DNA of 64,000 nt from Pseudomonadota bacterium. GTDB taxonomy: Bacteria; Myxococcota_A; Bradymonadia; UBA4248. Position numbers and translations under genes: made by a program. Shown in pieces: positions 6,995-50,926 of this stretch. The notes below the pieces were generated by a model that was given only the letters and a program-made list of their open reading frames with translations, was not told where the DNA came from and searched no databases. Each line of letters starts with the position of its first letter. Within the stretch, counting starts at the first letter, position 1. The DNA lies in the NCBI GenBank assembly GCA_017464085.1, contig JAFUEE010000163.1, forward strand, positions 45 through 64,044. The letters run 5' to 3'.

Positions 6995-7076
6995 GGTGGG
7001 CATATCTGGGGGATGAAATCAAGGGTTGTATTTGAAAAGAATCGGCAAGTGCCGGTCTGGTTTTAGAGGAGCAAAT

Positions 7077-10000
7077 ATGAACGTGAAGAAACAGGCGCGT
7101 GCTGCTGCCATATTTTTGGCTTCAGCGCTGGCATTCTATGGCTGTAGTGACAGTTCTGGCTCGGCTTCTGGCGGCGGAAGCGGAGATGCGTGCGACAAAG
7201 GCACGAAATGCGGCGATGTATGCTGCGAGGGCGCATGCGAGGGCGATGTGTGCATCGACACGTCTGCAGACCGCGAGAATTGCGGAGAAGTCGGTCATGC
7301 ATGTGAGTCCGGGGAGAAGTGCGAGTCCGGGGAATGTCAGCCGGAAAAAGTCACGTGCGGCACGGATGAGATGACGTGCGACGGCGTATGCGTCAATGTG
7401 AAGAATGATATCAATCACTGCGGCGGTTGCGGCCAGGCTTGCGAGGACAGCGAGGTGTGCGCGAACGGGCAGTGTTCGACGTCTTGCCCGGAGGGATATG
7501 CGCCGCTGAGCACTGGCGGCTGTGCCGATATGAAGACGGACAGCGACCATTGCGGTGCGGAGAACAACCGCTGCGAGACGAATTCGTTCTGCGAGGATGG
7601 CAGATGCGCGTGCACGGATGGCTGGTATGATTGCGACAATGTCAAGTCGAACGGCTGCGAATCGAACCGCACCTGCAATTTTGCTTGCGCGGAAGGGCTC
7701 AAGACTTGCGGGGAGCATTTGTGCTGCCCTGAAGCGGAAACGTGCTGTGGCGAAGGGTGCTGTGCGGTCGGGACGACCTGTTGTGGCGGCGATACGTGCT
7801 ACGACCTGCAGAATGATGCGGAGCATTGCGGCGGGTGTGATATCGGCTGCCGTGCCTCCGAAATCTGTGTGGAGGGGGCCTGCGTCGAGAATACGACGCC
7901 CTGCGAGACTGAAAATGAGATCGCCTGCTGGGGCAAGTGCACGGCCATTCAGAGCGATGTGAACAACTGCGGCGACTGCGGCAATGTCTGTCGCGAAGGC
8001 TGGTCTTGCGATGAAGGCATCTGCACGCTTCATTGCGAGGATCCGAAGACGCTTTGCGGCGATGCCTGCTATGACTTGTCCAATGACTTTTTGCACTGCG
8101 GAAGCTGCGAGACGGTCTGCGGACCGTCTCAGGTCTGCCAGGACAGCGCATGCGTGGAAATCTCCACGGTCATGCCAGACCTTGCGTGCGATCAGGAGAG
8201 CGGGGAGTCGTTATGCTGGGGCAGCTGTTACAAGCTTCAGGAAGACCGCGAGCACTGCGGCGCGTGCGATAACCGCTGCAATGAGGATCAGGATTGCACG
8301 GAAGGCAGCTGTGTCGATCGGATACCGCCCAACCCATACGGATGCGAGAATCAGGAAATTCTCTGTTATGGCAAATGCACCGATGTGTTCAGCGATGACA
8401 AGAACTGCGGGGCTTGCCTGAATGCATGTGGGGCAAATGAGAAATGCAGCCAGGGTATCTGCGAGATCCAGTGCGGGGAGCTGACGCGATGCGGCAGCAA
8501 GTGCGTGGATATACAGAGCGATGCGAAGTTCTGCGGCAGCTGTGAGACGGCCTGTGCCGATGGCCAGGTATGCACGGAGGGCGGCTGCGCCTGCGCGCCT
8601 GGCCGCTATGAGTGCGACAATGTTGCGGAAAATGGCTGCGAGTCGACGGAAGCGTGCAACTGTGTGCCGGGCTCGAAACAGGCATGCTGGCCTGGCTCCC
8701 CTGAGAATCGCCACAAAGGTATCTGCAAGGATGGCGAACAGGTCTGCGATGCATCCGGGCAGTTCTGGGGACCCTGTGTCGGCGGTGTGCTGCCTTCAAA
8801 AGTCACCTGCTCGGATGACGGCGTTCTCAACGGACTGGACAACGACTGCGACGGCAAGGTGGATGACGTGTGCTACACGACCTGCGACAATATCGCCGGC
8901 GAAAATTCCTACATCGGCTGCGAATATTGGCCCGTCTATCTCGAGAATTACTCCCCGTCCACGAAGAATCACGGGATCGTCATCAGCAACCCCAGCGAGA
9001 CGCGCACGGCGACGGTCAAGATTTTCAACCAGGCAGGCCAGAATGCCAAGCCGCCCAAGCCGCTCCATACGCTGAGCGTCAAGCCTGGCGGCCTTGCGTC
9101 CCTCGTCCTCTCCGAGGGCACGACAAACATGGTGATGAACACTGGCATCCAGGCAAAAGCGTATGTCGTCCGCACGAATACGCCGATCACGGTCTATCAG
9201 TTCAATCCCTGGGGCAAGGCATCCGTGTGCTCCAATGACGCATCGCTGCTGCTGCCAAGGAACGTGCTCGGCAAGAAATATCGCGGCATGACCTGGCAGA
9301 GCGAGAAGAGCTCGCTGCAGTCCTACCTGACTGTCGTTGCCGTGGAGCCCGGAAAGACAGCCGTTTCGTTCGACACGCGCTCGACGATCGTCGCAGGCAC
9401 CGGCGTCGCGCAGCTCGTTGCGAATGCGATCGGCAAATATGTCCTCAACCAGTTCGAGGTGCTCAATATGCTCTCGACGACGAATTCCGAGCAGACGGGC
9501 TCGTACATTGAGGCCGATCGCAAGATCGCCGTGTACGGCGGCTCGCAGTGCTCGTTCATTCCCAATAATATTTACGCATGCGACCATCTCGAGGAGCAGC
9601 TCTTCCCGATTCAGGCATGGGGCAAGTCGTATTTTGCAGTCCGCAGCGTCGCGCTCGGTGACAAGGGCGATTTCTGGCGCATCCTCGCGCATGAGGACAA
9701 CACGCAGGTCACTTTGCCCGCGAAGCTCGGCGGGACGATCACGCTTAAAGCCGGACAGTACAAGGAACTCGTCACGACCGATTCCTTCGAGATCGATGCG
9801 AACAAGCCGATCTTGGTCGGCCAGTTCTTCCCCGGCCTCGACTATCATACGAGCAATCCCAAGCACGAAGGCGATCCGGCATTCATCCTCGATGTGCCCT
9901 ATGAGCAGTATCGCTCGGAATATGCATTCATGATTCCCGACAGCTACCGCGACAACTATGTGACGATTATATCGCCAAAGGACAACGTCATCCACTACAC

Positions 10001-10328
10001 AGGGGAGGGCTATTGCAAGAGCGGCTGCAGCAACCTCGATCACTCCAAGCATGTGATGAACCCGTTCAGCAATGTCGATATCAATTCGCTGACGAGCATC
10101 GTCAAGCCGAAGAACGACAACGACGTTTCCTACACGTCTGAGAAATTGTTCACGGGCTTCAAGGAATTCGGCACGAAGGGCTATGTGTATGGCTATCTCA
10201 AGCTTGACGGCGGCACGCACAAGCTTGTCGGCGAGAAACCGTTCGGCGTCATCGGCTATGGGTTTTATGCATACACGTCCTATGGCTATCCGATCGGCCT
10301 CGACCTGAGGGTCCTCAATACCAACTGA
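7077..10328 (+). CDS. Giant Cys-rich repeat lipoprotein, paralog B
   Basis: ATG at 7077 after an AGAGGAG RBS; signal peptide with lipobox AFYGC. About 12 HCGxCG-type Cys repeats. The C-terminal domain aligns block-for-block with paralog A and ends GYPIGLDLRVLNTN. Confidence 0.8.
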   Translation: MNVKKQARAAAIFLASALAFYGCSDSSGSASGGGSGDACDKGTKCGDVCCEGACEGDVCIDTSADRENCGEVGHACESGEKCESGECQPEKVTCGTDEMTCDGVCVNVKNDINHCGGCGQACEDSEVCANGQCSTSCPEGYAPLSTGGCADMKTDSDHCGAENNRCETNSFCEDGRCACTDGWYDCDNVKSNGCESNRTCNFACAEGLKTCGEHLCCPEAETCCGEGCCAVGTTCCGGDTCYDLQNDAEHCGGCDIGCRASEICVEGACVENTTPCETENEIACWGKCTAIQSDVNNCGDCGNVCREGWSCDEGICTLHCEDPKTLCGDACYDLSNDFLHCGSCETVCGPSQVCQDSACVEISTVMPDLACDQESGESLCWGSCYKLQEDREHCGACDNRCNEDQDCTEGSCVDRIPPNPYGCENQEILCYGKCTDVFSDDKNCGACLNACGANEKCSQGICEIQCGELTRCGSKCVDIQSDAKFCGSCETACADGQVCTEGGCACAPGRYECDNVAENGCESTEACNCVPGSKQACWPGSPENRHKGICKDGEQVCDASGQFWGPCVGGVLPSKVTCSDDGVLNGLDNDCDGKVDDVCYTTCDNIAGENSYIGCEYWPVYLENYSPSTKNHGIVISNPSETRTATVKIFNQAGQNAKPPKPLHTLSVKPGGLASLVLSEGTTNMVMNTGIQAKAYVVRTNTPITVYQFNPWGKASVCSNDASLLLPRNVLGKKYRGMTWQSEKSSLQSYLTVVAVEPGKTAVSFDTRSTIVAGTGVAQLVANAIGKYVLNQFEVLNMLSTTNSEQTGSYIEADRKIAVYGGSQCSFIPNNIYACDHLEEQLFPIQAWGKSYFAVRSVALGDKGDFWRILAHEDNTQVTLPAKLGGTITLKAGQYKELVTTDSFEIDANKPILVGQFFPGLDYHTSNPKHEGDPAFILDVPYEQYRSEYAFMIPDSYRDNYVTIISPKDNVIHYTGEGYCKSGCSNLDHSKHVMNPFSNVDINSLTSIVKPKNDNDVSYTSEKLFTGFKEFGTKGYVYGYLKLDGGTHKLVGEKPFGVIGYGFYAYTSYGYPIGLDLRVLNTN

Positions 10329-11778: not shown

Positions 11779-11960
11779 TGCTGCAGGGTTCATGCGGCCC
11801 ATGGGGCTGGGGGATTGGTACGAGGGCACCGAATATGGTGGCGCGGCGTATTGGCAATGCCAATAGCCGCGCCCGCGACACGTATGCGCCGCAGGCGCAT
11901 AGGGGCGCGTTAAAGACATGATACGGAACGTTTACTGACGCAGGGATATGAGGTGCAGTC

Positions 11961-12620
11961 ATGAAAGGGATAAAGTTTACATATTGCGGCGCAGATGGCG
12001 AAAAACATTCATTTTTATTTGACCGTTCAGTGACGGAAGCATGGATCGGGGCTGGTCCGGAATGCGCGATCTGCGTGTCGGGCAAGTCGGTTCTGGCGCG
12101 TCATGCGAGGCTGTTTTGGCGGAATGGTCATGTCTTTGCAGCCTGTGTGCCGGGATGCGACCGGACGCTTGCGCCCAAAGTCGATGGGATGAGGCTTGAT
12201 GAGGGCGGGGATGAAGTGTTTCTGTGCAGCGAGCTTGTGGTGGGGGACGTGGTGATTTTCGCGTGCGCGATGGAGGAGGGCTCGCAGGCGTCCGAGGCGG
12301 AAGCTCAGCCGCAGCCGGAGCCTCCATGCTGTATTTATGGCCCGCCGTCACGGCTTTCCTGCCCGAAGCCGACTGAAAGAGATGAGGAGGAGAATGCGCG
12401 CGTAATGAAGATGCTGCAGGAGATTCGGGATACGCCGATGGTGACTTATGGCCCGCCTCAGGCATTTGCTGACGCTTGGATAGGTCAGGGCATGAAGCCG
12501 GTGCCTGCGCAGGCGTCCGGGGATGAAGGGCGAGGCAAAAGATCCGGCAGACCCCGCAGAAGGCCTGCGCAGGCGTCCGGGGATGAAGGCGAAGGCCGGT
12601 CGGGAGACGGAAAGAAATAG
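11961..12620 (+). CDS. FHA-domain protein with YGPP motifs
   Basis: No signal peptide. The N-terminal FHA-like region ends in '...KVDGMRL', the same ending as the FHA domain at 21739. Then CCIYGPPSRL and MVTYGPPQAF, followed by a duplicated 'PAQASGDEG.G' block encoded by a 26-bp direct repeat. Confidence 0.5.
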   Translation: MKGIKFTYCGADGEKHSFLFDRSVTEAWIGAGPECAICVSGKSVLARHARLFWRNGHVFAACVPGCDRTLAPKVDGMRLDEGGDEVFLCSELVVGDVVIFACAMEEGSQASEAEAQPQPEPPCCIYGPPSRLSCPKPTERDEEENARVMKMLQEIRDTPMVTYGPPQAFADAWIGQGMKPVPAQASGDEGRGKRSGRPRRRPAQASGDEGEGRSGDGKK

Positions 12621-16259: not shown

Positions 16260-17864
16260 TCATTTGTAGAGAACAGATTCGATATCGTTCCAGTCGGTTC
16301 TGGGCTTATCGAGCAGATGTGCGGCGATATTCTGGATATGCGACTGGATCTGGTGGCAGTTGTCGCGGATGAGTTCGTTGAGGATGTTATTTTGGTGATC
16401 GAGCTCGCTTTGGAACGCGGATCTGAGGGATTCGGCATGAATGCTGATGTCTTTTTCCGCGAGTTTTCTGAGCATTTCCCGGCGCGGTCGTTCGGCGCGT
16501 CCGGAGAGCAGGATGGGGACCGGGGTGAAGAACATGGCGACATTCTCGGCGGTGTCGAAAGCGCCGGTGCGCGTCGGGGTGTTCAGGAGATTGCAGATTT
16601 TCTGGAGATGGAACTCAAATCGGGGAAGCGCGTCGGTATCTGGGATAAAGTCATTCCAGAGCTTGTGCATCAGGTCATCGAGGCTATCGAGGATGATGTG
16701 ATAAGTATTTCTGGCAAATTCGAGGCAGGAATCCCGGATGAAGTCTTCGAGGTATTTTTCGACATCTTCGAGGAAGACCTTGTTGATCTCCCGGGGAATT
16801 GCTTTGAGGAACGCCTGTTCGAAACGGTCGGTATCATCGGTGACGAGCTGTTTGAGGTGAGCGATGTGCTGTGAGATGCGGTGGAGGATATCCGCGATGA
16901 CAAGCGGTGTCATCTGTCGCTCGGGTGTCTGGTCGAGTTTTTTGAGCGCGCGCAATGCGGGGACGTCGAGCTGTTCAAGCGCACGGTAAATGGGGTAGAA
17001 GCCTTCGAGCGTGTTGGAGAGCTGGCTGCCGAGTTTTTCAGAATTTCTGGCTTCGTAAGACTGTTTTCCGGCCTCGATCTCGTCGTGTATGCGCTTGCGC
17101 AGGAGCGCCCAGTCGCCTGATTTTTTCTTGGAGGAAATCATGTAAAACGGCTCGTTTGCGACGGGAAAGTCGAGGCATGTTTCGATGTAGTGGCAGACTT
17201 CGAGGGTTTCTTCTTCGTCGAGCCTGTCGCATTTGTTGATGACGATTGCGCGAGCATGCGGCGGCTGATCGAGGGAGAGCTTCGAGAGGAGATTCTGTTC
17301 CGTGTGCGTCAAGGCCTGGTTGGCGTCGAGCAGGAAGAGGAGCAGGTCGGCTCTTCGGATGTAGCGGTTGAGGAAGCTTTCCCTGACGAAGGATGCCTCG
17401 TTCAGGCCAGGCGTGTCGATGAACACGCATTCGCGGTCAAAGATGTCGAGATCGAGGTCGATGTCAATCCTGTCGGCGGATTTTTTGATCAGGATATCCG
17501 GGAGCTTGTTTCGTGAGGCTTTTTGCCAGTCATCCCAGCGCCACTGCGCGATCTGTTCATTCCCGGCGCTGGCGGTGACTGCTCGCCTGCCAGTGCCGAA
17601 GTGCAGATAGGTGTCGATCTGAGTGGTCGGCGTGACGCCGTAGGGGAGGATATTTTCCCCGACGAGCGCATTGATCAGCGAAGATTTTCCGTGATTGAAC
17701 TCTCCGAGGAAAATCACGAAAATCTCTTTTTTGCTGAGCGTCTGTTCGAAGCTGTTCCGCCATTGCGAAGCGAAACTCGCTAGGCCCATATTTTCAGCAG
17801 TCGCGAGCAGTTCTCTGATGTGTTCGGGCATCTGGATGTCAGCAGACATGTTGAATGGATCCAT
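16260..17864 (-). CDS. Dynamin-family / LeoA-like large GTPase
   Basis: G1 GEFNHGKSSL, G2 TPTTQ, G3 DTPGL and G4 NKCD motifs in the N-terminal half, followed by a roughly 300-aa helical region. Its 5' end overlaps the recF stop by about 26 nt. Confidence 0.6.
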   Translation of the reverse strand: MDPFNMSADIQMPEHIRELLATAENMGLASFASQWRNSFEQTLSKKEIFVIFLGEFNHGKSSLINALVGENILPYGVTPTTQIDTYLHFGTGRRAVTASAGNEQIAQWRWDDWQKASRNKLPDILIKKSADRIDIDLDLDIFDRECVFIDTPGLNEASFVRESFLNRYIRRADLLLFLLDANQALTHTEQNLLSKLSLDQPPHARAIVINKCDRLDEEETLEVCHYIETCLDFPVANEPFYMISSKKKSGDWALLRKRIHDEIEAGKQSYEARNSEKLGSQLSNTLEGFYPIYRALEQLDVPALRALKKLDQTPERQMTPLVIADILHRISQHIAHLKQLVTDDTDRFEQAFLKAIPREINKVFLEDVEKYLEDFIRDSCLEFARNTYHIILDSLDDLMHKLWNDFIPDTDALPRFEFHLQKICNLLNTPTRTGAFDTAENVAMFFTPVPILLSGRAERPRREMLRKLAEKDISIHAESLRSAFQSELDHQNNILNELIRDNCHQIQSHIQNIAAHLLDKPRTDWNDIESVLYK

Positions 17865-18963
17865 TATCGACGGAGAACATCCTGGCTACGCTGTCGACGT
17901 GCACATGTTCGCGTGAGGTTGTGGTCAGGAATGTCTGAGTTGTCAGTTGGTTGAGGTATTCAAAAAGCCGTTTGTGCCGTACCGGGTCGAGTTCGCTGGA
18001 GACATCGTCGAGCAGGAAGACCGGTTCGATATCTGCTTCGGCCTTGAGGCATGCGATTTCTGCCATTTTGATCGCGAGGCTCATGGCGCGCTGCTGTCCC
18101 TGGCTGGCATAGAGTTTTGCAGGTCGTCCGTTGAGTGCGATGGACCAGTCGTCGCGGTGAGGTCCTTCGATCATCTGCTGTCGCGCGAGCTCTCTTTCGC
18201 GAGCTTTTGACATCGCATTTCGGTAGGCGTCGAGCACCTGAGCGAGCGGTATTTCGTGTCCGGAGCCGAGCTGGATGTCGTCGCGCATGTTCGCGTTGTG
18301 ATAGACCGGGAGGCATTCCAGGCTCTGATCGAATATCGAGGCGAAGACATGCCGGATGTGCGGGGCGATCAGCCGCAGGTAATCGTACCGCGCTTCGATG
18401 AGCCTGCATCCGATTGGCAGGAGCTGCGCGTCATAGACATCGAGGAGGGAAAGATCGGGTGTTTCGCTGCGAAGGACAGCGGATTTCTGTTTCTGGATTT
18501 TCTGATATTGCTCGAGGTCGATGAGGTATGCGGGTCTGAGGTTGAACACCATCCGGTCGAGGGCGGTTCTGCGGAGCTGTGGCGGAGCCTGCAGGAAGGC
18601 GACATCCATGGGGACGAAGAGGATGGTCCTGAGGATGCCGAGATAATCGCGCGCGCGGGCGCATGGCATGCCGTCGACGAATGGCCTGCGAAGTTTTTGG
18701 TCGAGCTCGAGCCCGAGCCTGACAGTGGCATGATTGTTCTGGACGACGGCCGCGAGCTGTGCCTTCTGTGCATCGAATTCGATGAGGTCGCAGAGCCTGT
18801 CGGCTCGGAATCCTTTGAGAAACGCGAGCGTGTAAATCGCCTCGAGCAGATTGCTTTTTCCCTGTGCATTTGCGCCATAGAAGACATTGAAGCCTTCGGA
18901 GAACTCCAGGCTGATCTGCGAGAGGTTGCGGAAGTGCAGGATATCGAGCGAAGCGAGGTGCAT
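17839..18963 (-). CDS. recF: DNA replication and repair protein RecF
   Basis: LDILHFRNLSQISLEF...FYGANAQGKSNLLEAIY Walker A and overall RecF layout. I chose the start at Met 18963, which has a GGAGGT RBS; the ORF itself extends to 18987. Confidence 0.88.
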   Translation of the reverse strand: MHLASLDILHFRNLSQISLEFSEGFNVFYGANAQGKSNLLEAIYTLAFLKGFRADRLCDLIEFDAQKAQLAAVVQNNHATVRLGLELDQKLRRPFVDGMPCARARDYLGILRTILFVPMDVAFLQAPPQLRRTALDRMVFNLRPAYLIDLEQYQKIQKQKSAVLRSETPDLSLLDVYDAQLLPIGCRLIEARYDYLRLIAPHIRHVFASIFDQSLECLPVYHNANMRDDIQLGSGHEIPLAQVLDAYRNAMSKARERELARQQMIEGPHRDDWSIALNGRPAKLYASQGQQRAMSLAIKMAEIACLKAEADIEPVFLLDDVSSELDPVRHKRLFEYLNQLTTQTFLTTTSREHVHVDSVARMFSVDNGSIQHVC

Positions 18964-18964
18964 A

Positions 18965-19513
18965 TCAGGGGGTGACCTCCACGCCATGTTCGATCACGTT
19001 TCCGTCGATTTCGATCGGTGCCGGGAGCGGGCGTGTAATGTCCGTTGGCAGTGCCTTGGGTTCGATGCGCGGCGGATAGGACTCGTGGACCTCGAGCCCG
19101 AAGCCTTCGTCTGTGATGGAGACGGTGACATCGGCGGCCGGCGCGGAGCCGCGCAGTCTGAACGTCCGGACGGCGCGCTGGCCTCTGACAGGTTTTTCGA
19201 GGTTCAGGTCTGGCGCGCCTTCGGTGAGTTCGGTGTCGCCTTTGAGATCTAGATGCATGCGCGGTGCGCTGTTGAGGTCATCGTGATAGGTAACAGTCGC
19301 AGTCAGCAGCGTGATGTCCGCTTCCTGTTTGGCGGACAGCTCAAGCGTGTATGGGAGCACGAGCGCAGGCATTTCAGCGGCTTGAGCTGCGGTCTCAGAC
19401 GGGGCAGTTGTCGGGGCGTTTGCTTCGGGCGTATCATTTTTTCCTGTGCAGCAGCTTGTGCATAGCAGGAGGGACAGCGCTGGGAGGATGACATATCTTT
19501 TCATGGTAGGCAT
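18965..19513 (-). CDS. Hypothetical lipoprotein
   Basis: Signal peptide MPTMKRYVILPALSLLLCTSCC. No recognisable domain. Abuts recF. Confidence 0.45.
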   Translation of the reverse strand: MPTMKRYVILPALSLLLCTSCCTGKNDTPEANAPTTAPSETAAQAAEMPALVLPYTLELSAKQEADITLLTATVTYHDDLNSAPRMHLDLKGDTELTEGAPDLNLEKPVRGQRAVRTFRLRGSAPAADVTVSITDEGFGLEVHESYPPRIEPKALPTDITRPLPAPIEIDGNVIEHGVEVTP

Positions 19514-21738: not shown

Positions 21739-23826
21739 GTGGACAAACAGACCGGAATTGCATTAAAACGGCATCAGGTTTCCTTTTGCGCGAACTTTGA
21801 GAACGCGAACTATGAAGAAGGAGAGAAGTCCTTGGTAAAGTTAGTTTACAGCGATCAGAGTGGTTGGGAGAAATCGGTAGAGGTCAATGAGCTCAATCCG
21901 ACGATAATGATTGGACGCAATCCGGACTGTGCGGTTCAGACCTCGAATGCTTCAGTATCGCGCGTTCATGCAATGGTGACCTGGAAGGGCGGGAAGGTTT
22001 ATGTTCAGGATCCGCCGAACAGCCATCCGACGAACGGGACGAAAGTCGATGGCATGCGTCTCCAGCCAGGCCAGGTGCTTGAGCTGATGGCAAACAGCGA
22101 GCTTTTGTGCGGCAATTTTGCGATACGCGTGGAGAGCGAGGGGCCAGGCGACCGCGTGTCACACATGGGGGATCAGGGGGCGCTTCCGCAGGGGGGCCCG
22201 ATGTATCAGCAGGGATATAATGGCTATCAGCCGCAGGGGCGTGGCGCGGCAGGCTGGATGCAGCCGGGGCAGGCGCAGCCGAATATACCGCAGCCGGGCG
22301 CGATGATACCGCCGCCGCAGCCTACTCAGATGCCGCAGCAGCAGCCGGTGATGCCGCAGCAGCAACCGGTGATGCCGCCGCAGCAGCCGGTGATGCCGCC
22401 GCAGCCGGCCCAGATGATGCCGCCGCAGCAGCAGGCGGCACAGAATCCGCCGGATTTGAACCGGAAGTCGCGGAGCAACAATGCGCGCGGCTATATGCAG
22501 GGGCGCGATCGCGGCGCGATGTCGGCGGGAGTCATTCCGCATGGCGGCGATGAGGCGCTCAGGCTTCAGGAAGAGATATCTCGACTTCAGGAAGAGAATT
22601 CCCGCCTGCAGGCCGACAATCAGCTTGCTCGCCAGGAGATTGAGGAGCTTCGCTCCAACGGGACTGGAGAGAATTCCGTGAAGGAGCTTCAGGACAAGCT
22701 GGAGGAGCGCGACCAGATATTGACGGATTATGAGCGCCGCATCGAATACCACGAGACAGTCGTGACTGGCCTCAAGGATATGATCGACAAGCTCAAGGAG
22801 CAGATCGACCACCAGAAAGACCAGTATCAGGAATGCCGCCGCGACCTTGTGGCGTCTCAGGAAGAGGCGGAGTCGCTCCGTATGGAACTGTCGACGCTCA
22901 AGGAGACGCTTGATTCGAAGGGGATGGCGACCTCGAATGCTGAGACGACGATCGCGGACTTGAAAGTCCAGCTTCAGCAGAAGAACCGTCTTCTTTCGGA
23001 TCTTCAGCGCGATCTGGATATCGCGCAGTATTCGTGCAAGGAAGAGCGCGACAATGTGGAGCACCTGAAGGAGAATGTGGACAAGCTGAATGCCGAGCTT
23101 GAGGAAAGCCAGCGTCGCAACCGCGACATGAAGAAGGTCGTGGAGCAGCATGAGATGATGTTCAATGAGCTCAAGGGCAACCTGAACGACCGTGCGCGTG
23201 AGATTCGGCAGCTTCAGGATGCGCTGAGAAAACAGGGCGGCGGAGACAACGCGGCGCTGATGCAGGAGCTTGCGCAGGTGCGCGACAGCCTGACGAAGCG
23301 CAACAGCGAGGCGGAGATGCTCCAGAAGCAGCTCGAGGAGGCGCTCAAGGCGGCATCTGGCGCGGAGGCGGCGAATGTGACGCTCAAGGCGCGCGTGTCG
23401 GAGCTTGAAAAGGATGCGGGCGGCGATGCCTCCTTGAAGGCGCGAGTCAGCGTCCTGGAACGTGAGAAAGCGGCGCTCGAAGAGAAGCTTTCCGCCGGAG
23501 CCGGTTCGGGCGGCGGCGTGGACAGCGGCCTGATGGAGCGCATCCGCGGGCTTTACAGCGACATGAATGATGTTGTGAGCCAGTGGCGCGAAGATCTGGG
23601 CATACTTGATTCCAGCCTTTCCGAGCTTCAGACAGTGTTCAAGGCGTATGTGAAGATCGACGTGTCGAAGCTTCAGGAAAAGGATCGCAAGAGGTTGGAC
23701 AAGATTGCCGATCTCGATCCTCGCCTGATTTTTGATGACATCGGGAATTCGCTCTATTCGAGCCAGAATTCATTAGCGTCGATTAAAGAGAAATTGAAAG
23801 ATTTGAGGGGTGCGCTTCAGGCATGA
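21739..23826 (+). CDS. FHA-domain protein with a Pro/Gln-rich linker and a long coiled-coil
   Basis: GTG start. FHA core 'IMIGRNPDCAVQ...VSRVHAMV...KVDGMRL'; the (QQQPVMP)n repeat is encoded by a 21-bp tandem repeat (about 22327-22395). The C-terminal roughly 400 aa has heptad-rich, SMC-like coiled-coil character. Confidence 0.75.
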   Translation: MDKQTGIALKRHQVSFCANFENANYEEGEKSLVKLVYSDQSGWEKSVEVNELNPTIMIGRNPDCAVQTSNASVSRVHAMVTWKGGKVYVQDPPNSHPTNGTKVDGMRLQPGQVLELMANSELLCGNFAIRVESEGPGDRVSHMGDQGALPQGGPMYQQGYNGYQPQGRGAAGWMQPGQAQPNIPQPGAMIPPPQPTQMPQQQPVMPQQQPVMPPQQPVMPPQPAQMMPPQQQAAQNPPDLNRKSRSNNARGYMQGRDRGAMSAGVIPHGGDEALRLQEEISRLQEENSRLQADNQLARQEIEELRSNGTGENSVKELQDKLEERDQILTDYERRIEYHETVVTGLKDMIDKLKEQIDHQKDQYQECRRDLVASQEEAESLRMELSTLKETLDSKGMATSNAETTIADLKVQLQQKNRLLSDLQRDLDIAQYSCKEERDNVEHLKENVDKLNAELEESQRRNRDMKKVVEQHEMMFNELKGNLNDRAREIRQLQDALRKQGGGDNAALMQELAQVRDSLTKRNSEAEMLQKQLEEALKAASGAEAANVTLKARVSELEKDAGGDASLKARVSVLEREKAALEEKLSAGAGSGGGVDSGLMERIRGLYSDMNDVVSQWREDLGILDSSLSELQTVFKAYVKIDVSKLQEKDRKRLDKIADLDPRLIFDDIGNSLYSSQNSLASIKEKLKDLRGALQA

Positions 23827-23925
23827 AGCCTGAGCGGCCTATGGGTTATGGGTGCGCTGTGTCGCATGAGTCATGGGTGCAGCGCGAGCCTGATTTGTGA
23901 AATATTAGACGGGAGCAGACGGATT

Positions 23926-25479
23926 ATGGAAGGAATTCGGGCGAATGTTTCTTCAGAAGAAGAAATCGAGTATTTGATTCGAGCGAGATATCCGCTTATG
24001 TATGTCACAAGTACGGAAGAGGAGCGCGTGGAGAAGAATCTGCGCATCATTTGCGAGCGCCGCAACCGTCGATTTGTGACGTGGTCCTGCACAGAAGGCT
24101 TCCAGGGCGGCGACGGAGACACGTTCAATGATATCCGTGACCCTCAGCGTGCGATGGAGCATATTTTCCGTTATGAGAACGACGCGCTGTTCTGCATGAG
24201 GGATTTTCATCCGTATCTTTCGGATCCGCAGGTCACGCGCCGTCTTCGCGATCTCAGCCGCGAATTCAAGACGAGCCGATACAAGAAGCACGTGCTCCTT
24301 CTGAGCCCGACGTTCAAGATTCCGGTCGAGCTTGAGAAAGAGATGAGCGTGATTGATTACGATCTCCCGAACAGGACGGTCATCAATGAGCTTGTCCTTC
24401 AGGTTCTCAAGAGCGTTCCCGATGAGCTTTGCCAGCAGGTCCGCAACGATCCTCTTTTCCGTGAGAAAGTCGTTGAAGCGGCGCTCGGCCTGACTGCTGT
24501 CGAGGCATCGAACGTGTTTTCCAAGTCTCTGATCATCAAGAAAGACTTTGATATCGAGACGATTGTCGATGAGAAGAAGAATCTGATCCGCAAGAACGGG
24601 TTGCTTGAGTTCTATCAGTCGGATCTGAAGCTTCGCGACATCGGCGGCCTTGAGATTCTCAAGAGCTGGCTCAAGACGCGTAACCTTGCGTTCAGCTCGA
24701 AAGCGCGCGAGTTCGGTCTGCCGCTTCCGAAGGGCATTCTTCTTCTCGGTCTTCCCGGCTGCGGCAAGTCTCTGACTGCAAAATCGGTCGGCGCGCTCTG
24801 GAAGATGCCGCTTCTCCGCCTGGATGTCGGCAAGGTCTTTTCATCGCTCGTCGGTTCGTCAGAAGAGAACATGCGCAAGGCCATTGCAACAGCAGAAGCG
24901 GTCGCGCCGTGCATTCTCTGGATGGATGAGCTTGAAAAAGGCTTCTCCGGCACGAAGTCTTCCGGCCAGACGGATGGCGGTACGGGCGCGCGTGTTTTCG
25001 GTTCGTTCATCACGTGGCTTCAGGAAAAGACGAGCCCTGTATTCGTTATCGCGACGGCAAACGACGTGTCGATGCTTCCGCCGGAACTTCTCCGTAAAGG
25101 CCGTTTTGATGAGATTTTCTTCGTCGATCTTCCGAGCCCCGCAGAGCGCAAGACAATCATCGAGATTCATATCATCAAGAAGAACCGCAAGGTTGCTGAT
25201 TTTGATATTCCTCGTATCGTTGCGGCCACACAGGGCTTTTCAGGGTCTGAAATCGAGCAGGCGATTGTATCCGCACTGTTCGATGCCTATGAGGCGAAAA
25301 AAGATATCGATACGGAAAGCGTGATCCGTTCATGCAACGAAATCATCCCGCTCTCCTATCAGATGAAGGAACGCATCGACTACATGCGTGACTGGGCGAA
25401 GAGCCGCGCTCGCCGTGCCTCTCTCGATGAAGAAGGCGCGCATGAAGAGGACAAACAGATCCGTCATCTTGAGATGTAA
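23926..25479 (+). CDS. Ycf46-like AAA+ ATPase (N-terminal roughly 280-aa domain plus one AAA module)
   Basis: Walker [12 protein letters not shown], Walker [10 protein letters not shown], sensor/arginine-finger region; ATG at 23926 after a GGGAG RBS. The architecture and the N-terminal '[13 protein letters not shown]' block resemble cyanobacterial and plastid Ycf46 (from recall). Confidence 0.8.
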
Positions 25480-25496
25480 TTCAGAGGGAGATAATT

Positions 25497-25892
25497 ATGA
25501 GTCACTTTTCAACCGTTGAATCCAAAATGAAAGACCTCGAGTGCATTCTTGAGGCGATCAAAGATCTAGGCATGGAATGCGTGCATTCCGAAGAAGGCGT
25601 GAATGTGCGCGGATATAATCAGCAGCTGGAAAAAGCTGATATCTCGATCAAAGTCAGCGGCAAATATGATGTCGGCATTCGCCTGACAGAAAATGGCTGC
25701 GAGCTTTTGGCGGACTGGTGGGGCGTGGAAGCGACGCGTGGCGTGAACGAACAGCAGTTCACGAATCAGCTTCAGCAGCGCTATGCCTATCACAAAGTCG
25801 TGAAAGAGCTCAAAGCGAAGCACTACACGCTTGATATGAACGAAGACAAGACCACGAACGTGATCAAGCTTACGGCTACCAAATGGGGCTGA
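25497..25892 (+). CDS. DUF1257 (Ycf35-like) protein
   Basis: 131 aa; 'LECILEAIKDLGMEC ... YDVGIRLTENG ... WWGVEA' matches my recollection of the DUF1257/Ycf35 family. It starts 17 bp after the AAA ATPase. Confidence 0.7.
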   Translation: MSHFSTVESKMKDLECILEAIKDLGMECVHSEEGVNVRGYNQQLEKADISIKVSGKYDVGIRLTENGCELLADWWGVEATRGVNEQQFTNQLQQRYAYHKVVKELKAKHYTLDMNEDKTTNVIKLTATKWG

Positions 25893-25924
25893 TGCCCGAT
25901 TGAAGCATTATTGAGGAAAATCAA

Positions 25925-26140
25925 ATGGCAACAAAACAGGAAATCGAATTTACCATCAATCCCGACGGCTCTGTGGAGATTCATCCTGTGGGCTTCAAAG
26001 GCAAGAAGTGCACGGAAGTGACCAAGGAGATTGAGGAAGCTCTCGGTATCGTTAAAAACGTCAATTACACGAGCGAGTACTATCAGCAGGAAGAAGAAGT
26101 CCATACCCAGATCAAGGTCGGTGGCGACAGCGACAAGTAA
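25925..26140 (+). CDS. DUF2997 mini-protein
   Basis: 71 aa; 'EIEFTINPDGSVEIHPVGFKGKKCTEVTKEIEEALG...YTSEYYQ' is the DUF2997 signature as I recall it. The family is characteristically encoded next to DUF1257. Confidence 0.7.
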   Translation: MATKQEIEFTINPDGSVEIHPVGFKGKKCTEVTKEIEEALGIVKNVNYTSEYYQQEEEVHTQIKVGGDSDK

Positions 26141-26144
26141 AGGG

Positions 26145-26178
26145 AAGCCTTTCGGGCATGCATGCGCCTGAAAGGCTT
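26145..26178 (+). terminator. Perfect 9-bp stem hairpin after the DUF2997 gene (terminator or attenuator)
   Basis: AAGCCTTTC-gggcatgcatgcgcc-GAAAGGCTT followed by gttattct. The T-tract is weak, so it may be an RNA processing or attenuation hairpin and not a strong terminator. Confidence 0.4.
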
Positions 26179-26197
26179 GTTATTCTGGAATAAGATC

Positions 26198-26962
26198 ATG
26201 ACGGAAGAAATTGCGGAAATGCTGGATCAGTCTTGTTTGGATCTGTCTATCGTTCAGATAGATCTCGGACCGGAGAAGTTTGTTCCGCATCAGAGACCGT
26301 CGAGCGGGTTTTGGCGTGCGTCTTATGCAGATGGCGATATGGCTGTCGGCGTGCGCCATTTGGTCGATATTCATATCGACAAGCCGATATCTCGCGATAT
26401 GAGCGGGTTTTGTGACCGGATTTTCGAGCTTCACAAGATGGATCTCGAATCTATTGCAGAGCCCGAAAATATCGAGCGCCCGAACGAAGTCGATGATCAG
26501 GTCGTCGAATGTACGCCTCAGTTTATATTGAGAAACATTCCGAAAATTGAACGATATTATGATCTTGACCGCGTTCTGCCGTTTGAAGTGACCGATATGC
26601 CTAAAATGGAGGCGGATGACCTCCTGGCAGATGCCAAGAAAGTGCATCTCGGGGATATTGAATTCATTGAGGTCGAAAGCGTCAACTTTATCAATGACTT
26701 CAGATCGTTCCTCGAAGAGATATTTTATTTGTGTCCGTGGGATCAGATCACACGTCAGGAACCGGATGAAGACAGCCCGTGGCATATCAAGAATTCAACT
26801 ACGAAGCTTGCCCAGGATTTGCTCTCGCGCAAGAATACCCTCTTTATCTTCAGTGCCAAGGGTATGACGCAGATGGGCATGAAAGCTTACAAGCCACGCG
26901 AGGAAAAGAATGAGCCTACCGAAGCGCGGCCGGATTTTGTGCGAAGCTACGGGCCGGGTTGA
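26198..26962 (+). CDS. Hypothetical protein
   Basis: ORF 26162-26962. I preferred ATG 26198 because the first 36 nt lie inside the upstream hairpin. No recognisable domain. Confidence 0.4.
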   Translation: MTEEIAEMLDQSCLDLSIVQIDLGPEKFVPHQRPSSGFWRASYADGDMAVGVRHLVDIHIDKPISRDMSGFCDRIFELHKMDLESIAEPENIERPNEVDDQVVECTPQFILRNIPKIERYYDLDRVLPFEVTDMPKMEADDLLADAKKVHLGDIEFIEVESVNFINDFRSFLEEIFYLCPWDQITRQEPDEDSPWHIKNSTTKLAQDLLSRKNTLFIFSAKGMTQMGMKAYKPREEKNEPTEARPDFVRSYGPG

Positions 26963-27031
26963 TGCTAAAAGTGCTCAGAGCTTGCTCTTTGTTGCTCGGA
27001 TGTTTGTCCGGCATGTGGGCTTTTTTGAATT

Positions 27032-27370
27032 GTGAACAGGGGATATAGGTGTACTGTTCATGGGGATGTTATTTTTAACGTGATGAATATTGACGGGCTT
27101 GTCGTTGCATTTGCTTCATTCTTTATTATTGGCCTGTTTCATCCGATTGTGATTAAGGCTGAATATCATTTTGGAACAAGATGCTGGCCGGTATTCTGTC
27201 TGGCTGGAATCTGTTCGATCGCGGTGTCGGTTTTTGTGACATCTACTTTTTTGTCTTCTGTGTTCGGCGTGCTCGGATGCACGTGTTTCTGGAGCATCCT
27301 TGAGCTGTTCCACCAGAAAAAAAGAGTGGAGAAAGGCTGGTTTCCTAAAAATCCGAATCGGAAATATTAA
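27032..27370 (+). CDS. Hypothetical small membrane protein
   Basis: Two or three predicted TM helices (LVVAFASFFIIGLF..., ICSIAVSVFVTSTFLSSVFGVLG). The start is uncertain, and the 3' end converges on and overlaps the TPR gene. Confidence 0.3.
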   Translation: MNRGYRCTVHGDVIFNVMNIDGLVVAFASFFIIGLFHPIVIKAEYHFGTRCWPVFCLAGICSIAVSVFVTSTFLSSVFGVLGCTCFWSILELFHQKKRVEKGWFPKNPNRKY

Positions 27371-37341: not shown

Positions 37342-39537
37342 TCAGGCAGCTGAAAATGTCGCGATGACGATGCTTGTCGGCCAGTCGCATGTCTGACCGC
37401 GCAGATTTATCTGTGCCCATTGCGTGATTGACTCGCACGATTCACGTGACAGATACTGTCCAAGACGGTCGATATAGCTCGGCGTTTCGGCATTGTGGCT
37501 GAACCAGTAAGTGAAAATGGATGGCGTGATTGTCATGCGTCCCGAAAGGTCGAGCTTGCGTATATGCATGTGCATGTCGGATTCTCGGCAGGCCTGTTCG
37601 AGAACCTGCAATGAGAAAATGCGTTCGTGGTCTTGGCTCAGGAGCGTCTCTTCAGCATTTTTCCATGCCGTGACGAGATGCTGGTCGAGTTTTCCTGTGG
37701 GATCGGCCAGGCTGTATATGCGTGGCATTTCAGAGGGCAGCGTGTTCGCGAACGCGATCTTTCCTGTGGGAGATAGGCGAGCCTGTGCGGCGCGCAGTAA
37801 CTCGCCCAGGTCATGGCAGGTGTGCATGAAATTGCGCCCGATGATCGCATCGAATTCGATGTCACCGAACGCGTTGAGCGCATCCGGGGTGATATCGTCC
37901 ACGCGCGCGATTGCGGCGCGTTCGAGTTCAGGACGTTTTGATATGAGTGCTTCAAAGCTGTCTGCCATTGCGGACGGTGTGATGACGGAGAACACGCCGC
38001 CATCCGGACATCTTCTGAGTGCTTCGAATGAAAGCAGTCCGGAGGCTGCATTCAGGTCGAGGATGCGTGCGTTCGGTTGTGGGGAGACGAAGTCGAAGAG
38101 CTCGTTCCGGACGAGGTCGGCGCGCGCGGCTGCGCCGTCAAATGTCCTTCCGATCCATTTTTCTTCGGATGTCGATCGTGCGTCGAGTTCTCTCCGCTCT
38201 TCAAACAGCGCGAGCTGAGCCTCGCGGTTCCGCGAGACTTTTGCGGCAATGGTTGCCTCATACCCGATGTCTGTCGGATGATAGAATATACGTCCCTGAA
38301 GGCCGTCAGGGAGGTATTGCTGTGCGACCCAGTGGTCGCGGTAGGCATGCGGATAGAGATAGCCCTGCCCGTGCCCGAGTCCGTCCTTGTCGCGCGAGGC
38401 ATCCTTGAGCGGGTCAGGGATGTCATAAGAAGCTTCTTTCTGGACGACAGAGAGCGCGTCAAAAAAGGCCATTGCGGAGTTCGATTTGGGCGCGGTGGAG
38501 AGATAGATCGTGGCATGCGCGAGGTGGTAACGGCCTTCGGGCAGCCCGATGCGATCAAACGCCTGAGCGCAGGATTCCACGACGGAAACGGCATGTGGGT
38601 CTGCCATGCCGATATCTTCGCACGCGCTGATGAGCAGCCTGCGGAAGATGAAGTTAGGGGATTCCCCGGCCTGTACCATTCTCGCGAGCCAGTAGAGCGC
38701 GGCATCCGGGTCGCTTCCACGGATGCTTTTGATAAAAGCGCTGATCGTGTCGAAGTGCGCGTCACCTTCTTTGTCATAGAGGACTGCGCGCTGCTGTATG
38801 GATTCCTCGGCGACAGCGAGCGTGATTTCGATCTGTCCGGAACTGTCGGGCTCCGTGGTGACGACTGCGAGCTCGAGGGCATTGAGCAGCGCGCGTGCAT
38901 CGCCGTTTGCGACATTGACAAGATGCGCCAGGGCTTCTTCTCGCATATTGATGTTGAGCAGCCCGAAGCCCCTGTCGGGATCGCTGAGTGCCTGGAGCGC
39001 GATTCCGCGCAGATCGGAAGTTCCGAGCGGCCTGAGCTGGAAGATTCTGGATCGGCTGACGAGCGCCTTGTTGACTTCGAAATACGGATTTTCAGTTGTG
39101 GCGCCGATCAGGGTGATCGTGCCATTTTCGACCCACGGGAGAAGCGCGTCCTGCTGGCTTTTGTTAAAGCGGTGCACTTCGTCGACGAACAGGATGCTCT
39201 TTCGGTTGACCAGAGAGAAGTTCTGTTTGGCGGAGTCGATGGCTTCGCGGATATCCTTGACGCCCGCGAGCACGGCGTTGAGCGACAGGAACTTGCATCG
39301 CGTTGTGTTTGCGATGATGCGCGCGAGCGTTGTTTTTCCCGTTCCGGGCGGGCCGTAAAAGATGACGCTTGAGAGCTGGTCGGCTTCGATTGCTCTGCGG
39401 AGCAGCCTGCCTTTCGCAAGTATGTGCGCCTGTCCCCAGAATTCGTCCAGCGAGCGTGGGCGCATTCTGGCTGCAAGGGGTTCATGGGGTCTGTCGGGGA
39501 CGGGCTTGGGGGCAGGGCGGTCAAAAAGGGAGGGCAT
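37342..39537 (-). CDS. rarA: Replication-associated recombination protein A (RarA/MgsA) fused to a C-terminal class I SAM-methyltransferase-like domain
   Basis: N-terminal roughly 440 aa = RarA (FYGPPGTGKTTLARIIA Walker A, ILFVDEVHRFNK Walker B, MgsA C-terminal helical domain). The C-terminal roughly 290 aa carries 'ARILDLNAASGLLS' (motif I-like), 'VFSVI' and 'FDAIIGRNF' (motif IV-like). Confidence 0.8.
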   Translation of the reverse strand: MPSLFDRPAPKPVPDRPHEPLAARMRPRSLDEFWGQAHILAKGRLLRRAIEADQLSSVIFYGPPGTGKTTLARIIANTTRCKFLSLNAVLAGVKDIREAIDSAKQNFSLVNRKSILFVDEVHRFNKSQQDALLPWVENGTITLIGATTENPYFEVNKALVSRSRIFQLRPLGTSDLRGIALQALSDPDRGFGLLNINMREEALAHLVNVANGDARALLNALELAVVTTEPDSSGQIEITLAVAEESIQQRAVLYDKEGDAHFDTISAFIKSIRGSDPDAALYWLARMVQAGESPNFIFRRLLISACEDIGMADPHAVSVVESCAQAFDRIGLPEGRYHLAHATIYLSTAPKSNSAMAFFDALSVVQKEASYDIPDPLKDASRDKDGLGHGQGYLYPHAYRDHWVAQQYLPDGLQGRIFYHPTDIGYEATIAAKVSRNREAQLALFEERRELDARSTSEEKWIGRTFDGAAARADLVRNELFDFVSPQPNARILDLNAASGLLSFEALRRCPDGGVFSVITPSAMADSFEALISKRPELERAAIARVDDITPDALNAFGDIEFDAIIGRNFMHTCHDLGELLRAAQARLSPTGKIAFANTLPSEMPRIYSLADPTGKLDQHLVTAWKNAEETLLSQDHERIFSLQVLEQACRESDMHMHIRKLDLSGRMTITPSIFTYWFSHNAETPSYIDRLGQYLSRESCESITQWAQINLRGQTCDWPTSIVIATFSAA

Positions 39538-50876: not shown

Positions 50877-50926
50877 CGGTGATAGCCTAAACTTATGGCT
50901 AGGTGATTTTAGGAGTGAGCAAATTC

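Follow-up and report, generated by a model that had tools for sequence, protein, structure and literature searches.

Members of the Ycf46 family of AAA+ ATPases are encoded by cyanobacteria and plastids. Severe stress induces the cyanobacterial Ycf46 operon (slr0373-slr0374-slr0376 in Synechocystis, where ycf46 is slr0374; Synpcc7942_0416-0418) in a ppGpp-dependent manner (bioRxiv 10.1101/2025.07.21.665879). A separate cyanobacterial locus, the DUF2997-ycf35-fed7 cluster, brings together a DUF2997 gene, the DUF1257 gene ycf35 and a ferredoxin gene (PMC4284462). The searchable literature on Ycf46, DUF1257 and DUF2997, in which no more than five papers refer to either of the small-protein families, holds only cyanobacterial physiology and transcriptomics, and no biochemical function for any of the three. 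We describe here a relative of these systems from a non-photosynthetic bacterium of the Myxococcota, Bradymonadales-like to judge by the names that its close homologues bear, located in a 64,000-nucleotide stretch of contig JAFUEE010000163.1 (hereafter the window), in which a Ycf46-type ATPase is encoded together with DUF1257 and DUF2997 proteins and is preceded by a large FHA-domain protein.

The operon of FHA/coiled-coil, Ycf46-type ATPase, DUF1257 and DUF2997 genes is real, and comprises five co-directional genes in all. ATPase, DUF1257 and DUF2997 form one conserved module that reaches beyond photosynthetic organisms into other bacteria, some archaea and phages. The FHA-linked form found in the Myxococcota is a variant not described before of this known but functionally uncharacterised module. 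We propose that the operon encodes a Ycf46-type AAA+ remodelling machine with DUF1257 and DUF2997 as partners and the FHA protein as its phospho-threonine coupling, a proposal whose chances of being right or wrong we hold to be evenly balanced. Since the host is non-photosynthetic, the function in CO2 use suggested for the Synechocystis system does not carry over as it stands. Both ycf46 and ycf35 are conserved cyanobacterial and plastid genes of unexplained biochemistry, and the module, the tandem AAA architecture and the radical SAM partner set out below could make the function of the family testable.

Organization of the operon

The features of the operon, numbered from the first nucleotide of the window, are as follows.

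21832-23826, forward strand: protein with FHA domain, Pro-Gln-rich linker and long coiled coil, 664 amino acids; 99-nucleotide spacer to the ATPase gene
23926-25479, forward strand: Ycf46-family AAA+ ATPase, 517 amino acids; 17-nucleotide spacer to the DUF1257 gene
23953-24540, forward strand: predicted degenerate AAA-like domain of the ATPase ('dead D1', about residues 10-205), lacking a Walker A or B motif
25435-25476, forward strand: disordered acidic linker and conserved C-terminal tail R-H-L-E-M of the ATPase (predicted local distance difference test score, pLDDT, below 50 for residues 504-517)
25497-25892, forward strand: DUF1257 (Ycf35-like) protein, 131 amino acids; 32-nucleotide spacer to the DUF2997 gene
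25925-26140, forward strand: DUF2997 protein, 71 amino acids; 57-nucleotide spacer to the fifth gene, with a hairpin inside
26145-26178, forward strand: 13-base-pair GC-rich hairpin between the DUF2997 gene and the fifth gene, a candidate intra-operon terminator or attenuator
26198-26962, forward strand: fifth gene, acidic protein of 254 amino acids without a family match
27006-27020, forward strand: short terminator-like hairpin and T-run 3' of the fifth gene, a weak consensus match only

The FHA/coiled-coil reading frame is open from a GTG at 21739, which would give a protein of 695 amino acids; the start at 21832 is the one chosen by gene callers on sister contigs that encode an identical ATPase. 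The identical ATPase protein occurs on 24 public contigs. The initial annotation of this DNA had described a four-gene co-directional operon closing at a strong hairpin. The co-direction and the close spacing (99, 17 and 32 nucleotides) are borne out, as is a hairpin at 26145-26178 after the DUF2997 gene, but a fifth co-directional gene (26198-26962), inside the annotated end at 26962 and left unmentioned, lies beyond that hairpin.

Like the cyanobacterial Ycf46 operon, the window operon has an ATPase homologous over its full length (43% identity), with the same predicted arrangement of a dead first AAA domain (D1) and an active second one (D2) and with an R-x-hydrophobic-E-hydrophobic tail, and it has a DUF1257 gene directly after the ATPase gene. 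It differs in that its first gene codes for the FHA/coiled-coil protein and not for a member of the slr0373 family, in the presence of a fifth, lineage-specific gene and, relative to the ycf46 loci of photosynthetic cyanobacteria (L057, L060, L089), in the inclusion of DUF2997. With the DUF2997-ycf35(DUF1257)-fed7 cluster it shares the side-by-side encoding of both small-protein families; that cluster, however, has a ferredoxin and no ATPase, whereas the window operon has an ATPase and no Fe-S protein.

A Ycf46-family ATPase with a predicted dead first domain

The membership of the window ATPase in the Ycf46 (slr0374) AAA+ family is established by its sequence. Over residues 12-517 it shares 43% identity with the ycf46 product of Almyronema (locus L060), whose gene is preceded by an slr0373-family gene rather than a DUF2997 gene (141 bits against a cut-off of 100 for NCBIfam NF052617, 'slr0373 family blue light stress response protein') and followed by a DUF1257 gene of 116 amino acids. 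This full-length homology to a gene in the published slr0373-slr0374(ycf46)-slr0376 arrangement places the protein in the family, in agreement with the original assignment. The ATPase scores 99.6 bits against Pfam AAA (cut-off 21.2) and 25.1 bits against AAA_lid_3, under the cut-off of 27.2. Its N-terminal 225 residues match 3224 clusters formed at 50% identity (E <= 1e-3, among 1.84 billion representatives), and the family is therefore large.

A scan of one genome per species with a 12-sequence alignment yielded 80 full-length relatives of the ATPase, at 42-63% identity, whose surroundings are referred to below as the cellular loci. They come from Myxococcota, Spirochaetota, Armatimonadota, Omnitrophota, Planctomycetota, Verrucomicrobiota, Chloroflexota, Actinomycetota, Firmicutes and Cyanobacteriota (photosynthetic lineages as well as Gastranaerophilales), and from archaeal metagenome-assembled genomes (MAGs). 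Longer members of the family were considered as informative fusions and rejected, the extra length being due to inteins (Intein_splicing with or without LAGLIDADG) within the AAA domain, as seen in P0131, P0132, P0147, P0151, P0159 and P0253; the exception, P0204, carries an N-terminal TerD domain in place of an intein.

The C-terminal part of the ATPase is predicted to be a single catalytically competent AAA module of the classic clade with its motifs intact. Among 48 relatives there is no variation in the Walker A (GCGKS) and Walker B (DE) motifs, the sensor-1 Asn or the RxxR arginine fingers, and the nearest solved sequences are the D2 domains of Cdc48/p97 (E ~1e-54). Most cellular members have S-L-V-G in pore-loop 1, and some phage copies have Y-V-G.

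The initial annotation had assigned the ATPase a distinctive N-terminal domain. An N-terminal half does precede the single AAA module, but it is a degenerate AAA domain and not a novel one. Profile-profile comparison (hhalign) aligns the N half with the AAA half at E 9.5e-5 and a probability of 59%, with Walker B, sensor 1, the arginine-finger region and the lid all falling in register. In the AlphaFold model (mean pLDDT 82.5) residues 10-205 form a beta-alpha-beta core with a helical lid, and the model superposes on the tandem AAA proteins NVL and Rix7 over 415-444 residues. Neither a P-loop nor a Walker B acid pair is present in the N half, which has TSTEEERV and RDFHP at the equivalent positions. 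Because this half aligns and folds like an AAA domain yet is without P-loop and Walker B, the protein as modelled is a type-II-like tandem AAA+ ATPase whose D1 is degenerate and whose D2 is active, an architecture not recorded before for this family.

In having two AAA-fold domains and D2-type catalytic motifs the modelled ATPase resembles the type II tandem AAA+ unfoldases NVL/Rix7, Cdc48/p97/VAT and Pex1/6. Unlike proteins of the Cdc48/NVL/Rix7 type, it no longer has Walker A, Walker B, sensor 1 or arginine fingers in its D1. The differences from the Cdc48/p97 type extend to the pore loop 1 sequence (Leu-Val-Gly), to the partners, which are DUF1257 and DUF2997 rather than adaptors of the UBX or Ufd1-Npl4 type, and to the absence of an N-terminal double-psi-barrel cofactor-binding domain: no N-terminal cofactor-binding domain was found in the ATPase, where only ~9 residues precede the degenerate AAA domain.

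The C-terminal tail, R-x-[LIM]-[ED]-hydrophobic, follows a disordered acidic stretch and is kept from the Myxococcota (RHLEM in the window) to cyanobacteria (KRMEF). Among the cellular loci it is present in 31 of the 42 ATPases linked to DUF1257 or DUF2997 genes and in none of the 18 solo ATPases (Fisher p = 4e-8, not corrected for phylogeny), but viral loci without detectable DUF genes still carry it in 23 of 31 cases. Since the cellular association reverses in the viral loci, we do not claim the tail as a predictor or dock of DUF1257 or DUF2997, and treat tail docking as a lead only.

A module of ATPase, DUF1257 and DUF2997

The DUF1257 protein scores 70.5 bits against PF06868 (cut-off 22.2), covering profile positions 1-102 of 103, and the DUF2997 protein scores 66.7 bits against PF11211 (cut-off 24.1), covering all of positions 1-47 of 47. 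With the 99.6 bits of the ATPase, all three family assignments of the initial annotation stand above the Pfam cut-offs. DUF1257 is modelled as a KA1/TBP-like interaction fold, a fold of the kind that serves protein, lipid or RNA binding; fold comparison revealed no catalytic-site resemblance and no likeness to the redox-protein type, and a viral fold search returned one unnamed match. DUF2997 is judged, from its sequence pattern alone, to be a beta-beta-alpha-beta unit of ~50 residues, with the conserved motifs G-x-K-G-x-x-C and T-x-E-Y-Y. No solved relatives were found for either family, neither protein contains the glycyl-radical signature RVxG[FWY], and PADLOC gave no match for either.

We called open reading frames in the 80 cellular loci, searched them with hidden Markov models (HMMs) grown from the window proteins, and clustered the neighbouring reading frames. 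In 42 of the 80 loci, from many phyla, the fetched flanks include DUF1257 and/or DUF2997 genes. They usually adjoin the ATPase gene, either before or after it and in variable order, and all are co-directional with it; such variability in order and position argues that the linkage itself is under selection, and not that a single arrangement was inherited. In several loci where only DUF2997 was apparent at first, the gap contains a divergent DUF1257-like gene. The predicted conservation of the link between the AAA gene and the small genes is thus upheld, both here and in viruses, where 29 of 80 loci keep it.

This survey also disposes of the idea that unrelated co-directional genes happen to be adjacent in the window. 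The spacers of 17 and 32 nucleotides already speak against such chance adjacency, and the gene set turns up again in other phyla, in archaea and in viruses, with its members reordered; on the strength of this synteny we regard chance adjacency as excluded for practical purposes.

Cyanobacteria follow a pattern of their own. In the photosynthetic cyanobacterial loci (L057, L060 and L089, with L072 showing the same layout) DUF1257 adjoins ycf46 and no DUF2997 gene is nearby. The expectation that both small genes neighbour cyanobacterial ycf46 therefore holds for DUF1257 but not for DUF2997, which is found elsewhere, with ycf35 and fed7 (PMC4284462); the exception is an unclassified Cyanobacteriota MAG (L080), with the order DUF1257-DUF2997-AAA. 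As a further observation, seven loci from Planctomycetota, Chloroflexota and this Cyanobacteriota MAG (L058, L068, L074, L077, L080-L082) combine the ATPase, DUF1257 and DUF2997 genes with genes for a large WD40 protein and for GrpE-like and Hsp70-like proteins, with or without a radical SAM gene.

The FHA/coiled-coil protein and the fifth gene

The Pfam FHA domain (PF00498) is matched with 47.1 bits (cut-off 20.7) by residues 57-122 of the 695-amino-acid reading frame, and the matches outside this domain are of coiled-coil type. In the translation the canonical phospho-Thr-binding residues can be read as GR (IGR), SxxH (SRVH) and NG (NGT), so the domain carries an intact phospho-Thr-binding signature. 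A co-directional FHA/coiled-coil gene, orthologous along its length, lies immediately upstream of the ATPase gene in 12 Myxococcota loci belonging to Bradymonadales-like, Kofleriaceae and Haliangiales clades. The FHA linkage noted in the initial annotation is therefore conserved, but as a lineage-specific feature and not a family-wide one. In Kofleriaceae three further FHA genes stand in a row (3-4 in total). Eight loci from Kofleriaceae and related organisms (L011, L013-L017, L024, L031) have, after DUF2997, genes for an eCIS_core (DUF4157, HExxH motif) protein and a pentapeptide-repeat protein, with up to four FHA genes before. The window itself has a second, weak FHA-like reading frame (11952-12617, forward strand, 222 amino acids), which matches the FHA/coiled-coil HMM at E 1.6e-8 and has no Pfam match at 1e-5.

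Type VI secretion provides a precedent for an FHA-regulated AAA+ pathway, in Fha1, ClpV and PpkA. As there, the FHA gene of the window adjoins an AAA+ ATPase gene, which suggests control by Ser/Thr phosphorylation. Unlike that pathway, the window operon is without secretion-system genes and without an adjacent kinase or phosphatase gene, its ATPase is of a different clade, and its FHA protein, in contrast to Fha1, has a coiled coil of ~300 residues. The initial annotation had drawn support from a Ser/Thr kinase gene some 20 kb away. Such a gene does exist, at 44231-46234, but we found no link between it and the operon and it provides no evidence. The phospho-regulated remodelling machine proposed there may nonetheless be considered a reasonable reading of the gene content. 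The FHA-linked form offers experimental handles through phospho-peptide binding and through the coiled-coil partner.

Searches of Pfam, NCBIfam, PADLOC, PHROGs and PDB gave no match for the fifth protein, and it shows no similarity to the phage genes at the equivalent position, Corndog gp95 and JP1_049. Its homologues occur only in the Bradymonadales-like relatives L001-L006 and L010, where the preceding hairpin is also kept.

A model for the machine

We infer that the ATPase would act as a ring, presumably a hexamer, in which a dead N-terminal ring domain is combined with one active classic-clade AAA domain, and that this hexamer may unfold or disassemble client proteins through its pore. DUF1257 and DUF2997 would be small dedicated partners that bind the ATPase, whether as adaptor, regulator or obligate client. 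The core of ATPase, DUF1257 and DUF2997 would be ancient, and the input or accessory genes added to it vary with the lineage: slr0373 accompanies it in cyanobacteria, WD40, Hsp70-like and GrpE-like genes in Chloroflexota and Planctomycetota, and an NrdG-like radical SAM gene in many bacteria, archaea and phages. In the Myxococcota the accessory is the FHA/coiled-coil protein, which by binding to the machine would most likely tether it to phospho-threonine-marked targets or sites and so place it under phospho-regulation. The induction of the cyanobacterial ycf46 operon by stress and ppGpp fits a stress-remodelling role, and says nothing biochemical.

Four observations sit uneasily with this model. 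Pore-loop 1 has a Leu at the position where most unfoldases carry an aromatic residue. In 18 cellular loci, most of them from Armatimonadota and Caldilineaceae, the ATPase gene stands alone although 3 kb or more of sequence is available on each side. Among the 80 cellular loci, the FHA linkage is restricted to a single clade, the Myxococcota. Finally, the radical SAM gene that so often accompanies the module suggests chemistry outside a remodelling role.

The radical SAM partner

An NrdG-like radical SAM gene is present in 21 of the 80 cellular loci, distributed over Firmicutes, Actinomycetota, Gastranaerophilales, Spirochaetota, Planctomycetota, Chloroflexota and archaea, and usually abuts the DUF2997 or the ATPase gene. 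The product, of ~195 amino acids, is of the glycyl-radical-activase type, scoring up to 129 bits against Pfam Fer4_12 and 85-123 bits against NCBIfam NrdG, under the cut-off of 126 bits for the latter. This partner, which recurs in 18 of 80 viral loci, raises the possibility that the core is a radical-SAM- or ferredoxin-dependent system in which DUF2997, with its conserved Gly and Cys, and/or DUF1257 serves as a substrate or carrier that the NrdG-like activase modifies or ferredoxin reduces, while their loading, resetting or extraction falls to the ATPase. The G-x-K-G-x-x-C motif of DUF2997 would suit such chemistry, as would the company that DUF2997 and ycf35 keep with the ferredoxin gene fed7 in cyanobacteria (PMC4284462). 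The window version would then have to be derived, its radical SAM gene lost or encoded elsewhere: an HMM built from the 21 radical SAM genes found no homologue in a six-frame translation of the whole 64-kb window, and none of the FHA-type Myxococcota loci surveyed has such a gene. Given also that the small proteins are without the glycyl-radical signature and that the DUF1257 fold is not of the redox-protein type, we consider this explanation rather unlikely.

The two ideas can be combined. An ancient Ycf46/DUF1257/DUF2997 engine might have small subunits that serve as a redox or radical switch, written by an NrdG-like radical SAM protein or a ferredoxin in most lineages and rewired in the Myxococcota to Ser/Thr phosphorylation through the FHA/coiled-coil protein. 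We regard this as quite improbable, but if it were true, ycf46 and ycf35 in algae and cyanobacteria would code for parts of a single machine whose mechanism could be defined.

Phage and viral copies

Phages also encode relatives of the window proteins, which, like the radical SAM partner, the initial annotation does not mention. The match between the ATPase and phrog_8638 runs from end to end (2e-139); DUF1257 matches phrog_20456 and DUF2997 matches phrog_23133. Full-length ATPase homologues in GenBank phages include those of Corndog-like mycobacteriophages (Corndog gp96) and Agrobacterium phage JP1. Pfam detects no DUF1257 or DUF2997 among the ATPase neighbours in Corndog, JP1 and Javan368; the grown HMMs then found both types in JP1, downstream of the ATPase gene, with JP1_052 a DUF2997 protein and JP1_051 a weak DUF1257-like match. 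The cyanophages P-SSM2 and P-SSM5 carry DUF1257.

IMG/VR contains 314 matching stretches, and the viral counts given here refer to the best 80 of these 314. DUF1257 and/or DUF2997 is kept in 29 of the 80, mostly co-directional with the ATPase gene and variable in order and position. A typical order, in viral contigs of 60-180 kb, is ATPase, a 247-amino-acid RecA/KaiC-like protein, DUF2997, radical SAM, DUF1257. This cassette is common to L091, L094, L095, L098, L107, L109-L111 and L165, where small membrane proteins follow the DUF1257-like gene. A second viral context, in 36 loci (L154 and L137 among them) and in Mycobacterium phage Corndog (L007), has different conserved partners, a family of ~265 amino acids in 36 and one of ~113 amino acids in 35 viral loci. 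Neither belongs to a known family, and hhalign (probabilities <=21%) shows no relation of either to DUF1257 or DUF2997.

These copies bear on a further explanation, namely that the module is a mobile biological-conflict system, an anti-phage defence or its phage counterpart, similar to the IetA type and equipped with variable effector genes. In addition to the full-length phage homologues and the PHROG matches of both small proteins, it could draw on the inteins inside the ATPase gene and on the variable accessories, including the eCIS_core (DUF4157) HExxH and pentapeptide proteins of Kofleriaceae. The AAA module does resemble IetA of the IetAS anti-phage system (8e-27 to PADLOC IetA; 2e-23 to NCBIfam IteA), but the match is restricted to residues 284-520 and so to the generic AAA module, IetA is without a degenerate N-terminal AAA domain, and the window operon, having no gene for the IetS serine protease, does not qualify as an IetAS system. 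Nor do the small proteins have a PADLOC match. The genomic setting likewise tells against mobility: the ATPase gene is 60-93% conserved among related MAGs and syntenic there in housekeeping surroundings, and the G+C content at third codon positions falls only slightly short of the value in the flanks. The cyanobacterial and plastid distribution of the family, and the behaviour of the cyanobacterial operon as a stress-response operon, are equally at odds with a conflict system, which we consider very unlikely.

Genomic surroundings and other features of the window

The hairpin directly 3' of the DUF2997 gene (26145-26178) has a folding energy of -24.8 kcal/mol (z = -4.0), and none of 200 shuffled sequences folds as well. 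Equivalents are present in the relatives L002 and L006, where a U-run follows, and in L010; the Kofleriaceae loci have no equivalent of this hairpin. The window has a G+C content of 54%, so that the high-GC host assumed in the initial annotation is not supported.

The flanks of the operon encode housekeeping functions (GroEL, a dynamin-like GTPase with an SMC-like ATPase, a methyltransferase, a giant TPR protein, two M16 peptidases and exonuclease VII), in an arrangement that is syntenic in related metagenome contigs. The pair formed by the dynamin-like GTPase and the SMC_N/AAA_15 ATPase lies on the reverse strand at 16260-18987, a few kb upstream of the operon, and is kept in sister contigs. 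After the fifth gene, a DUF4491 membrane protein (Pfam, 142 bits) is encoded at 27032-27370 on the forward strand, overlapping the 3' end of the convergent gene for a 1207-amino-acid TPR protein; this DUF4491 gene is kept in sister contigs only.

Further from the operon, tandem forward-strand genes at 4157-6994 and 7026-10328 encode giant proteins of 945 and 1100 amino acids, each with Stig1-like Cys-rich repeats and an IgGFc_binding domain. A reverse-strand reading frame of 1312 amino acids at 39648-43586, whose sole recognised domain is a C-terminal 4Fe-4S ferredoxin (Fer4_13), adjoins an MgsA-type AAA+ gene at 37342-39537. The region from ~50000 to ~60000 has a lower G+C content (0.42-0.48, against ~0.57 in its flanks) and may be a foreign island; it contains a reading frame of 993 amino acids without a Pfam match (50903-53884) and a subtilase gene (57212-59155).

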